Below, piece after piece: positions 1 to 4,190 of a stretch of 4,516 nt of DNA. Within the stretch, counting starts at the first letter, position 1; each line of letters starts with the position of its first letter. The notes below the pieces were generated by a model, which was given only the letters and a program-made list of their open reading frames with translations, did not search any database and was not told the origin of the DNA. Source of the stretch: Escherichia coli (lineage in GTDB: Bacteria > Pseudomonadota > Gammaproteobacteria > Enterobacterales > Enterobacteriaceae); the NCBI RefSeq assembly GCF_003334255.1, contig NZ_QOWU01000108.1; one strand, given 5' to 3'. The position numbers were made by a program, and so were the translations under genes.

Positions 1-117
1 CTGGCGGCAGTAGCGCGGTGGTCCCACCTGACCCCATGCCGAACTCAGAAGTGAAACGCCGTAGCGCCGATGGTAGTGTGGGGTCTCCCCATGCGAGAGT
101 AGGGAACTGCCAGGCAT
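1..117 (+). rRNA. rrfB: 5S ribosomal RNA, 3' 117 nt (5'-truncated by about 3 nt at the window edge)
   Basis: Sequence from ctggcggcagtagcgcggtggtcccacctgacc to gggaactgccaggcat matches the E. coli 5S rRNA as I recall it, minus the leading tgc. It is followed immediately by the rrnB T1/T2 terminators, which is the basis for calling the rrnB copy. Confidence 0.93.
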
Positions 118-126
118 CAAATAAAA

Positions 127-164
127 CGAAAGGCTCAGTCGAAAGACTGGGCCTTTCGTTTTAT
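127..164 (+). terminator. rrnB T1 intrinsic terminator
   Basis: Hairpin with arms aaaggctcagtc (129-140) and gactgggccttt (145-156), GAAA tetraloop, one G-U wobble, then cgttttat U-tract. Matches the rrnB T1 sequence widely reused in expression vectors. Confidence 0.9.
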
Positions 165-199
165 CTGTTGTTTGTCGGTGAACGCTCTCCTGAGTAGGA

Positions 200-238
200 C
201 AAATCCGCCGGGAGCGGATTTGAACGTTGCGAAGCAAC
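200..238 (+). other. Two stable hairpins in the T1-T2 spacer
   Basis: 9-bp stem caaatccgc (200-208) / gcggatttg (214-222) with 5-nt loop; 5-bp stem gttgc (226-230) / gcaac (234-238) with gaa loop. Neither is followed by a U-tract. Confidence 0.6.
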
Positions 239-240
239 GG

Positions 241-285
241 CCCGGAGGGTGGCGGGCAGGACGCCCGCCATAAACTGCCAGGCAT
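241..285 (+). repeat. Degenerate partial copy of the 5S rRNA 3' end between T1 and T2
   Basis: GC stem ggcgggc (251-257) / gcccgcc (263-269) followed by taaactgccaggcat, which parallels the 5S terminal helix and 3' end gggaactgccaggcat. The 18-nt string aactgccaggcatcaaat occurs at both 105-122 and 273-290. Confidence 0.6.
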
Positions 286-295
286 CAAATTAAGC

Positions 296-330
296 AGAAG
301 GCCATCCTGACGGATGGCCTTTTTGCGTTT
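296..330 (+). terminator. rrnB T2 intrinsic terminator
   Basis: Hairpin aaggccatcc (298-307) / ggatggcctt (312-321) with 4-nt loop, followed by a T-run and gcgttt. Matches the rrnB T2 sequence as I recall it. Confidence 0.88.
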
Positions 331-405
331 CTACAAACTCTTCCTGTCGTCATATCTACAAGCCATCCCCCCACAGATACGGTAAACTAGCCTCGTTTTT
401 GCATC

Positions 406-409
406 AGGA
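406..409 (+). promoter_or_regulatory. Shine-Dalgarno for murB
   Basis: agga located 8 nt upstream of the ATG at 418. Confidence 0.6.
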
Positions 410-417
410 AAGCAGCT

Positions 418-1446
418 ATGAACCACTCCTTAAAACCCTGGAACACATTTGGCATTGATCATAATGCTCAGCACATTGTATGTGCCGAAGACGAACAACA
501 ATTACTCAATGCCTGGCAGTATGCAACCGCAGAAGGACAACCCGTTCTTATTCTGGGTGAAGGAAGTAATGTACTTTTTCTGGAGGACTATCGCGGCACG
601 GTGATCATCAACCGGATCAAAGGTATCGAAATTCATGATGAACCTGATGCGTGGTATTTACATGTAGGAGCCGGAGAAAACTGGCATCGTCTGGTAAAAT
701 ACACTTTGCAGGAAGGTATGCCTGGTCTGGAAAATCTGGCATTAATTCCTGGTTGTGTCGGCTCATCACCTATCCAGAATATTGGTGCTTATGGCGTAGA
801 ATTACAGCGAGTTTGCGCTTATGTTGATTCTGTTGAACTGGCGACAGGCAAGCAAGTGCGCTTAACTGCCAAAGAGTGCCGTTTTGGCTATCGCGACAGT
901 ATTTTTAAACATGAATACCAGGACCGCTTCGCTATTGTAGCCGTAGGTCTGCGTCTGCCAAAAGAGTGGCAACCTGTACTAACGTATGGTGACTTAACTC
1001 GTCTGGATCCTACAACAGTAACGCCACAGCAAGTATTTAATGCGGTGTGTCATATGCGCACCACCAAACTCCCTGATCCAAAAGTGAATGGCAATGCCGG
1101 TAGTTTCTTCAAAAACCCTGTTGTATCTGCCGAAACGGCTAAAGCATTACTGTCACAATTTCCAACAGCACCAAATTACCCCCAGGCGGATGGTTCAGTA
1201 AAACTGGCAGCAGGTTGGCTTATCGATCAGTGCCAGCTAAAAGGGATGCAAATAGGTGGGGCTGCGGTGCACCGTCAACAGGCGTTAGTTCTCATTAATG
1301 AAGACAATGCAAAAAGCGAAGATGTTGTACAGCTGGCGCATCATGTAAGACAGAAAGTTGGTGAAAAATTTAATGTCTGGCTTGAGCCTGAAGTCCGCTT
1401 TATTGGTGCATCAGGTGAAGTGAGCGCAGTGGAGACAATTTCATGA
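418..1446 (+). CDS. murB: UDP-N-acetylenolpyruvoylglucosamine reductase (peptidoglycan precursor synthesis, FAD-dependent)
   Basis: 342-aa ORF beginning [30 protein letters not shown], recognised as E. coli MurB, which is also 342 aa. Sits immediately upstream of birA as in the known murB-birA arrangement. Confidence 0.95.
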
Positions 1447-2408
1447 AGGATAACACCGTGCCACTGAAATTGATTGCCCTGTTAGCGAACGGTGAATTTC
1501 ACTCTGGCGAGCAGTTGGGTGAAACGCTGGGAATGAGCCGGGCGGCTATTAATAAACACATTCAGACACTGCGTGACTGGGGCGTTGATGTCTTTACCGT
1601 TCCGGGTAAAGGATACAGCCTGCCTGAGCCTATCCAGTTACTTAATGCTAAACAGATATTGGGTCAGCTGGATGGCGGTAGTGTAGCCGTGCTGCCAGTG
1701 ATTGACTCCACGAATCAGTACCTTCTTGATCGTATCGGAGAGCTTAAATCGGGCGATGCTTGCATTGCAGAATACCAGCAGGCTGGCCGTGGTCGCCGGG
1801 GTCGGAAATGGTTTTCGCCTTTTGGCGCAAACTTATATTTGTCGATGTTCTGGCGTCTGGAACAAGGCCCGGCGGCGGCGATTGGTTTAAGTCTGGTTAT
1901 CGGTATCGTGATGGCGGAAGTATTACGCAAGCTGGGTGCAGATAAAGTTCGTGTTAAATGGCCTAATGACCTCTATCTGCAGGATCGCAAGCTGGCAGGC
2001 ATTCTTGTGGAGCTGACTGGCAAAACTGGCGATGCGGCGCAAATAGTCATTGGAGCCGGGATCAACATGGCAATGCGCCGTGTTGAAGAGAGTGTCGTTA
2101 ATCAGGGGTGGATCACGCTGCAGGAAGCGGGGATCAATCTCGATCGTAATACGTTGGCGGCCATGCTAATACGTGAATTACGTGCTGCGTTGGAACTCTT
2201 CGAACAAGAAGGATTGGCACCTTATCTGTCGCGCTGGGAAAAGCTGGATAATTTTATTAATCGCCCAGTGAAACTTATCATTGGTGATAAAGAAATATTT
2301 GGCATTTCACGCGGAATAGACAAACAGGGGGCTTTATTACTTGAGCAGGATGGAATAATAAAACCCTGGATGGGCGGTGAAATATCCCTGCGTAGTGCAG
2401 AAAAATAA
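1443..2408 (+). CDS. birA: Bifunctional biotin-[acetyl-CoA-carboxylase] ligase and biotin operon repressor
   Basis: 321-aa ORF beginning [47 protein letters not shown] (N-terminal winged HTH). Contains the biotin-binding glycine-rich loop GRGRRGRKW (aa 115-123, nt 1785-1811). Length matches E. coli BirA. GGAG Shine-Dalgarno at 1431-1434; start overlaps the murB stop. Confidence 0.95.
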
Positions 2409-3705: not shown

Positions 3706-3742
3706 TTGCATGAACTCGCATGTCTCCATAGAATGCGCGCTA
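3706..3742 (+). promoter_or_regulatory. Sigma70 promoter of the thrU-tyrU-glyT-thrT-tufB operon
   Basis: -35 TTGCAT (3706-3711), 17-bp spacer, -10 TAGAAT (3729-3734), then GC-rich discriminator gcgcgc (3735-3740), which is typical of stringently controlled stable-RNA promoters. The predicted start is about 7-8 nt before the first tRNA. Confidence 0.8.
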
Positions 3743-3748
3743 CTTGAT

Positions 3749-3824
<76 letters not shown>

Positions 3825-3832
3825 TCAAGTCC

Positions 3833-3917
<85 letters not shown>

Positions 3918-4033
3918 ATTTCGGCCACGCGATGGCGTAGCCCGAGACGATAAGTTCGCTTACCGGCTCGAATAAAGAGAGCTTCTCTCGATATTCAGTG
4001 CAGAATGAAAATCAGGTAGCCGAGTTCCAGGAT

Positions 4034-4108
<75 letters not shown>

Positions 4109-4114
4109 AGATGT

Positions 4115-4190
4115 GCTGATATAGCTCAGTTGGTAGAGCGCACCCTTGGTAAGGGTGAGGTCGGCAGTTCGAATCTGCCTATCAGCACCA
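4115..4190 (+). tRNA. thrT: tRNA-Thr (anticodon GGU)
   Basis: 76 nt. Acceptor stem gctgata/tatcagc, anticodon stem caccc/gggtg with loop tTGGTaa (anticodon GGT), T-loop ttcgaat, encoded CCA. Begins 6 nt after glyT. Confidence 0.93.

Follow-up and report, generated by a model that had tools for sequence, protein, structure and literature searches.

A shared, strain-variable rrn terminator module and a putative weak promoter between the rrnB 5S rRNA gene and murB-birA of Escherichia coli

The window analysed here, a stretch of 4,516 nucleotides of Escherichia coli DNA, begins within a 5S rRNA gene and continues through murB and birA. A sequence search with its first 700 positions gave 100% identity with E. 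coli K-12 MG1655 and with many other strains, and window positions are converted to coordinates of NC_000913.3 by adding 4,171,639. The same positions also gave matches at 80 places on plasmids. According to the RefSeq annotation, the gene order is rrfB (5S) – T1 – T2 – murB – birA – coaA – thrU/tufB, with coaA on the opposite strand and followed by thrU-tyrU-glyT-thrT and tufB; Rfam placed the four tRNAs at 3749-4187. The 5S gene ends at position 117 and the ATG of murB lies at 418, so that the gap between them is 300 nt long. The features of this gap and of the genes on either side are collected in Table 1.

Table 1. Features of the 5S-murB spacer and the adjoining genes (window positions)
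Feature	Positions	Strand	Description and evidence
rrfB, 5S rRNA	1..117	+	Last 117 of 120 nt; Rfam 5S_rRNA 82.6 bits, match 1-115; RefSeq rrfB 4171637-4171756
168-bp module	118..285	+	T1, three hairpins and 5S 3'-end remnant, bounded by direct repeat; repeat spacing 168; presence/absence in strains
rrnB T1 intrinsic terminator	121..164	+	20-bp stem, 4-nt GAAA loop, U-tract (tail TTTTAT); terminator scan
Hairpin 1, without U-tract	200..222	+	Inverted repeat, 9 bp perfect; -12.9 kcal/mol, z = -4.8
Hairpin 2, without U-tract	225..239	+	-7.2 kcal/mol, z = -3.2; seen in the whole-spacer fold
Hairpin 3, without U-tract	250..270	+	Inverted repeat, 8 bp perfect; -19.0 kcal/mol, z = -5.3
Copy of last 5S bases	273..289	+	AACTGCCAGGCATCAAA; part of repeat 273-302
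rrnB T2 intrinsic terminator	296..330	+	Inverted repeat, 10 bp perfect; tail TTTTTGCGTTT up to 330
Moderately conserved block, -35 zone	358..369	+	ACAAGCCATCCC; column conservation 0.64-0.97, 80 species
Near-invariant block with putative -10 TAAACT (383-388)	377..389	+	ATACGGTAAACTA; columns at least 95% in 80 species, except 379 = 75%
Predicted murB start G, inferred	395..395	+	7 nt after the putative -10 hexamer; G in 80/80 species
Predicted 23-nt leader	395..417	+	G, T-run 396-400, GCATC, Shine-Dalgarno AGGA 406-409
murB, UDP-N-acetylenolpyruvoylglucosamine reductase	418..1446	+	ORF; RefSeq
birA	1443..2408	+	ORF; RefSeq; start overlaps murB stop (ATGA)

The rrnB T1 terminator is used in countless vectors. 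In the window its hairpin had a folding energy of -31.4 kcal/mol (z = -10.4 relative to shuffled sequences). RNA 3' ends were present at 4171799/4171800 (window 160/161), inside the U-tract, in the accessible part of the Term-seq data of Adams 2021. For T1 alone, termination efficiencies of 93-95% in vitro and of 99.1% in vivo with a reporter have been published. T1 therefore has the properties of an intrinsic terminator, with a G+C-rich hairpin, a U-tract, RNA 3' ends and a published efficiency. The preliminary description of this DNA was right to place T1 here, but its span of 127-164 covers the G+C-rich core only, and the full stem begins at 121. The second terminator, T2, was correctly located at 296-330 in that description, as the perfect 10-bp stem, the energy and the T-tail confirm. 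Its stem (298-307/312-321) is extendable to 294-326 and folds with -23 kcal/mol (z = -6.3), and the G+C-rich hairpin stands directly before the U-tract. T2 was not called by a simple terminator scanner, a failure probably explained by a stem that can reach into the T-run. In the accessible part of the same Term-seq data no plus-strand RNA 3' end was present between 4171800 and 4172639, T2 included, and the next one after T1 falls within murB, at window position 1000. If nearly all polymerases already stop at T1, an absence of 3' ends at T2 is to be expected.

The region between the two terminators is also structured. Two non-terminator hairpins had been reported earlier at 200-238, and they were recovered at 200-222 and 225-239, neither with a T-tail. 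A third and strong hairpin (250-270) had been overlooked. Also overlooked was a direct repeat of 30 nt, 105-134 versus 273-302, whose copies are 87% identical; in the second copy, ahead of T2, sequence from the 5S 3' terminus and the beginning of T1 is found again. The entire spacer, 118-417, was much more stable than its shuffles (z = -6.7), and the earlier picture of a 5S-murB gap filled by T1, hairpins and T2 holds, with all of the listed structures present.

Comparison with the other rRNA operons of MG1655 showed that this arrangement is not peculiar to rrnB. The unit of T1, hairpins, 5S remnant and T2 is almost base for base alike in rrnA, rrnB and rrnD, in the last case after rrfF. The rrnG operon has only a T2-type terminator directly after 5S, the form in which T2 also sits in most other Enterobacteriaceae; rrnE ends in a different single terminator, and in rrnC and rrnH tRNAs come first. 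Rather than being specific to murB, the T1-hairpins-T2 block forms a 3' module that rrn operons share. The similarity among the rrnA, rrnB and rrnD copies stops at window position 326, which leaves murB no more than about 90 nt of its own, in agreement with the earlier remark that little space is left for a murB promoter.

The module also varies between strains. The long form before murB, recognised by positions 200-417 matching in one piece, was present in 2,521 of 5,426 complete E. coli genomes (~46%), and most of the remaining genomes carried T2 alone before murB. In the short-form genomes sampled, the match started at window position 273 and overlapped the annotated 5S gene. Alignment of K-12 with SMS-3-5, OkiPb01704 and E69 gave a clean gap of 168 bp and a single terminator: in these short-form strains a complete 5S gene occupies the place of the 273-289 remnant and is followed by one terminator. 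Beyond E. coli, a co-oriented 5S gene was found 114-369 nt upstream of murB in 19 of the 20 Enterobacteriaceae loci with enough flanking sequence, with one or two terminators in between, and Kluyvera carries the full K-12-type module before murB. The closeness of 5S and murB across the family means that the short promoter space is general; the tandem arrangement is not. Since the T1/hairpin module may be present or absent within one species, it is no fixed part of murB control. The module most likely arose through duplication at a repeat of 17-30 nt derived from the 3' end of 5S; it is exchanged among rrn operons and is not tailored to murB. Where it is present, T1 stops nearly all rRNA transcription and T2 would act as a back-up, with the three tail-less hairpins between them.

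These distributions also bear on a location of the murB promoter inside the T1-T2 spacer (165-295), where T2 would serve as an attenuator. Weak matrix matches do occur there, at 249-276 (GTGGCG-16-TAAACT, 5.7 bits) and at 172-200. However, murB is not preceded by this spacer in about half of the E. coli genomes or in most other genera, and identical DNA follows rrnA and rrnD, where murB does not come next. We regard such a location as extremely improbable. A small ORF at 314-385 (23 aa) was likewise rejected; its start lies within the T2 stem and it had no support.

The murB-proximal region was studied in an alignment of murB upstream regions from 80 species representatives of the Enterobacteriaceae, to which the Salmonella and Klebsiella pneumoniae loci were added afterwards; genus-level conservation was calculated with one sequence per genus for 20 genera. 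A search with the MurB protein returned Enterobacteriaceae only, with at least 77% identity, and the comparison spans that family. At the level of consensus matching, the statement of the preliminary description that 331-417 contains no convincing sigma70 -35/-10 pair was borne out by both a promoter scanner and a weight matrix. The scanner reported no sigma-70 site in window 1-700. The best weight-matrix score in 321-425 was 4.66 bits, the mean of the shuffles being 5.5 ± 2.2, and 309 of 500 shuffles scored as well; the known thrU/tufB promoter in the same window reached 10.2 on the same matrix. The candidate -35, AAGCCA at 360-365, agrees with TTGACA at three of six positions and lies within the pattern ACAAGCC.TCC, which is moderately conserved and a poor match to TTGACA. 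Across species the best -35 candidates at a spacing of 15-19 bp were AAGCCT, AAGCCA, AAGCGC and ATCACC, and in most species no -35 was recognisable. No TG extension was found upstream of TAAACT (383-388). The upstream region of Leclercia is unrelated in sequence; even so, it holds a CCGACA placed exactly 17 bp before the hexamer. The pair containing TAAACT was the top weight-matrix match in about half of the 80 species. Judged as a sigma-70 promoter, the putative murB promoter possesses a hexamer with the T-12, A-11 and T-7 of a -10 element and, Leclercia excepted, lacks both a TTGACA-like -35 at 16-18 bp and the TG extension.

Conservation gave a different view of the hexamer, which had earlier been dismissed as weak, with the implication that a dedicated promoter might be lacking. 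This dismissal was not supported, because TAAACT lies in a near-invariant block and is followed at start-site distance by an invariant G. The hexamer was TAAACT in 74 of the 80 species, TACACT in four and TAAAAT in two, and it was TAAAAT also in Salmonella, one of the loci added later. T-12, A-11 and T-7 of the putative -10 were invariant in the 80 species, and the variants touch only the two positions best tolerated by a sigma-70 -10. The gap between the hexamer and G395 was 6 nt in 75 of 80 species; from this G to the ATG there were 22-25 nt in all 80. Downstream lies a second conserved block which consists of the invariant G395, followed by T397-C405, G407-A409 and 411-413. At the genus level, conservation was 0.62 for 352-376, 0.96 for 377-389, 0.58 for 390-394 and 0.90 for 395-413; within murB, it was 0.58 at codon position 3 and 0.87 at positions 1+2. 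The pattern of selection is that of a promoter, with conserved elements and a gap, 390-394, that is free in sequence and fixed in length. Within E. coli the murB-proximal 86 nt were found once per genome, with at least 95% identity, in 5,419 of 5,426 genomes.

A signal acting at the level of RNA was not detected at these positions: folding of 372-417 (z = +0.65) and of 395-440, which takes in the leader (z = +0.84), did not differ from shuffles in the direction of a stable structure, and no Rfam family exceeded its threshold at the conserved blocks. Attempts to find a murB transcription start site in published data were not successful. None was present in the accessible parts of the SMRT-Cappable-seq, Cappable-seq, Conway 2014 and Kim 2012 supplements, whose partial coverage makes this weak evidence, and the same is true of the likewise partly covered supplements of Shigella dRNA-seq, ROSE, the Rend-seq annotation and EDL933 Cappable-seq. 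A literature search on a murB or birA promoter returned nothing relevant, and a genomic SELEX study of promoters recognised by RpoD holoenzyme alone does not name murB in its main text (0 occurrences). The start site of murB may already stand in databases.

One record departed from the uniform picture within E. coli. In E. coli 'L-formLTE' the region upstream of window position 387 appeared to be lost, but the record contains the 3' end of GFP, a T1 copy of vector origin and stretches of N. This record is a plasmid/chromosome chimera or a misassembly at the shared T1 and is not informative.

Taking these observations together, we consider it probable that murB-birA is driven by a weak promoter of its own, of the sigma-70 type and with a start near position 395, and that the upstream rrn module does no more than insulate this promoter. 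The conserved hexamer, the free gap of fixed length, the invariant purine and the short leader with AGGA make a dedicated promoter the most likely source of transcription. On the evidence of the alignment, the conserved block is most likely the -10 element, and the start is most likely at or next to G395. Transcription of murB-birA would then proceed from a weak promoter within the 90 nt after T2, with TAAACT (383-388) as the -10, AAGCCA (360-365) as a poor -35 and initiation at or next to G395. The transcript would carry an unstructured leader of 23 nt in which AGGA serves as the ribosome-binding site, and birA would be expressed through translational coupling to murB by way of the ATGA overlap. 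In genome coordinates (NC_000913.3), this amounts to a specific prediction of a -10 at 4,172,022-4,172,027 and a start near 4,172,034.

The conservation is in some respects broader than a -10 element would need, as it includes ATRCGG at -18 to -13 and an A at -6 (A389); the block may therefore overlap a site bound by a protein, or may have another function. Accordingly, we also considered that 377-389 and 395-405 might be the operator of a regulatory protein or another DNA signal, the real promoter being elsewhere or dependent on a protein. Apart from the conserved bases outside the hexamer, ATRCGG and A389, such a reading could account for the lack of a usable conserved -35, and a bipartite operator would likewise consist of a pair of conserved blocks at a constant distance, with variable sequence between them. 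However, substitutions in the hexamer occur only where a sigma-70 -10 tolerates them best, while T-12, A-11 and T-7 do not vary; the weak dyad AAAC-N7-GTTT of E. coli does not persist in the 27 species that have GATTTT; the motif has no second copy in the window; and the downstream block holds the Shine-Dalgarno sequence. Nor does the 80-species alignment offer a promoter further upstream, since it contains no conserved -10-like hexamer there other than TAAACT. An operator that overlaps or replaces the -10 element therefore appears quite unlikely.

Several known sites were compared with the conserved blocks by eye, using their consensus sequences, and were rejected, although such comparisons give no more than leads. 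The BirA operator has GTAAAC in common with the block, but its half-sites would be spaced by 5 nt instead of about 16. For a Sigma-E promoter the spacer would be 14 nt instead of 16, and the mRNA would lose the Shine-Dalgarno sequence. As for a Sigma-54 promoter, TTGCA is present, but the GG element is missing and shows no conservation. Partial matches to Sigma-32 and class II CRP sites occur in E. coli and are not conserved.

In fast growth, transcription of an rrn operon starts about once per second, and if a residual leak of 0.1-1% through its terminators is assumed, roughly 0.06-0.6 transcripts/min would enter murB, a rate comparable to that of a weak promoter. Read-through from the very strongly transcribed rrnB operon was the second option named in the preliminary description. 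It could be argued that such read-through contributes substantially to murB-birA mRNA, for instance 20% or more of it, and couples the synthesis of cell-wall precursors and biotin ligase to that of rRNA. By the published efficiencies T1 alone leaks 0.9-7%, murB is co-oriented with an rrn operon at a distance of 114-369 nt in 19 of 20 Enterobacteriaceae loci, and the dedicated promoter is weak by sequence. Yet the number of terminators before murB varies, about half of the E. coli genomes having one and half having two, while the proximal 86 nt stay at least 95% identical. A difference in leak of 10- to 100-fold is evidently tolerated in front of a constant promoter region, which argues against a tuned dependence on read-through. 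A conserved -10/+1 footprint would also be unnecessary were read-through the main source. The lack of a T2 RNA 3' end in the accessible part of the Term-seq data fits few polymerases passing T1 and is weak evidence in the same direction. A substantial share from read-through is therefore held to be unlikely; beside a dedicated promoter it would be a minor contributor to murB-birA expression.

A side lead came from the sequence that follows the predicted start. If G395 is +1, the first transcribed bases are GTTTTT in 45 of the 80 species and GATTTT in 27; counted from this predicted start, a run of at least three T beginning at +2 or +3 occurs in 72 of 80. Salmonella and Citrobacter sedlakii have GATTATG, and the T-run is missing. 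By analogy with known promoters, RNA polymerase might slip at the T-run of G395 in reiterative transcription, and the output of murB-birA might then follow the UTP pool. We think this very unlikely, and the T-run in the murB leader may simply aid translation. To our knowledge, murB has no known link to pyrimidine supply. If true, a response to UTP would link the UDP-sugar pathway of cell-wall precursors to the supply of pyrimidine nucleotides. According to a recent preprint, T-tracts located at start sites cause slippage throughout the genome; murB is not mentioned in its main text.

For the field as a whole little changes, as rrnB T1/T2 is textbook knowledge and an essential gene of low abundance with a weak promoter is unremarkable. 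The anatomy of the terminators was already known, and the additions made here are modest: the sharing of the module with rrnA and rrnD, its polymorphism before murB and the promoter footprint. Conclusions about 'tandem terminators' based on K-12 nevertheless fail for about half of E. coli, because the T1/hairpin module varies between rrn operons and strains. Strains with one and with two terminators before murB constitute a natural experiment on rRNA read-through into an essential gene.

The region corresponds to several known systems. The classic rrnB T1-T2 terminator region of E. coli is said to have been described by Brosius et al. in 1981 and reportedly was dissected by Orosz et al. in 1991; the sequence here is the very same, with no difference. 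Reiterative transcription at UTP-sensitive promoters was reportedly worked out by Turnbough and co-workers for carAB P1 (GTTTGC) and for codBA and upp (GATTTTTT...). Like these, the predicted murB start is a G or GA followed by at least four T; unlike these, the murB start is a predicted one, and in Salmonella and Citrobacter sedlakii it reads GATTATG. Brandis, Cao & Hughes 2019 (PMC6735719), in the part of the article available, regarded murB, birA and coaA as genes inserted between rrnB and tufB, reported terminator-promoter overlaps (operon concatenation) for neighbouring operon pairs, and gave there no data on read-through from rrnB into murB. The present case shares with concatenated operons the neighbourhood (rrnB ... 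tufB-secE-rpoBC), a terminator of a strong operon close before the next promoter and a conserved co-oriented adjacency (19 of 20 loci). It differs in that the terminator and the putative promoter do not overlap, the T-tail of T2 ending at 330 and the -35 zone of murB starting at about 360. Compared with weak sigma-70 promoters having a good -10 and a poor -35, the murB candidate lacks a TG extension and, in most species, a recognisable -35, and its start is a predicted one; it likewise has T-12, A-11, T-7 and a purine 7 nt downstream, with a discriminator whose length is constant while its bases vary.

Among complete E. coli genomes, about 46% carry the module formed by T1 and the hairpins in front of murB. 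E. coli SMS-3-5 was found to have one hybrid terminator there, in which the stem resembles that of T1 and the tail is that of T2.

Window positions of the features discussed
Feature	Window position	Description
T1-plus-hairpins module	118-285	168-bp indel with clean edges, bounded by the direct repeat given in the next row
Direct repeat	105-134 and 273-302	copies of the 5S 3' end
T2 to conserved block	331-376	19 C and 4 G in 46 nt
ATGA	1443-1446	murB stop overlapping birA start
Hairpin AGGGGAG...CTCCCCT	2407-2431	between convergent birA and coaA; A-run and T-run on its flanks
TTGCAT-17-TAGAAT	3706-3734	+ strand, 10.2 bits

The segment leading from T2 to the conserved block, the putative murB -10 region, is C-rich and G-poor, a composition typical of Rho loading sites. 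Because of this likeness, it could be a candidate site of this kind, acting on untranslated read-through RNA. In Escherichia sp. MOD1-EC7003 (locus L006, 1-421), about 330 nt intervene between the rrn terminator and murB, with a short ORF and REP-like sequence, and the murB-proximal sequence is kept from window position ~332 on. From its translation, our guess is that the ORF is a truncated transposase.

Two kinds of anomalous records were encountered. Between 23S and murB, E. coli 'L-formLTE' (NZ_CP169632.1; locus L095, 2020-2510) carries the 3' end of GFP, plasmid sequence, N runs and a vector copy of rrnB T1; this record is a plasmid/chromosome chimera or a misassembly at the common T1 sequence. 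Enterobacteriaceae-type murB loci or proteins, 77-79% identical to E. coli, also stand under labels of unrelated phyla, namely a contig titled Chryseobacterium sp. 18061 (locus L057) and a protein named Vagococcus sp. WN89Y (P0057), likely through contamination or mislabelling.

Further downstream, the ATGA overlap suggests translational coupling and co-transcription of murB and birA. The published Term-seq data place an RNA 3' end within murB at window position 1000 (NC_000913.3 4172639, + strand; ORF position 582), seen in at least two conditions, and neither a hairpin nor a T-run was seen around it. The same data put the coaA 3' end at window position 2407 (4174046, - strand), and the hairpin between birA and coaA is probably a bidirectional terminator.

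Another gene packed straight behind an rRNA operon is yjaA, which starts only 74 nt past rrfE, the 5S gene of rrnE (locus L087, 541-735; NC_000913.3 4213040-4213234), with a single, different terminator in the gap.

On the + strand, nothing else in the window matches sigma-70 as well as TTGCAT-17-TAGAAT, which lies immediately upstream of thrU, where the known promoter of the thrU-tufB operon is situated.
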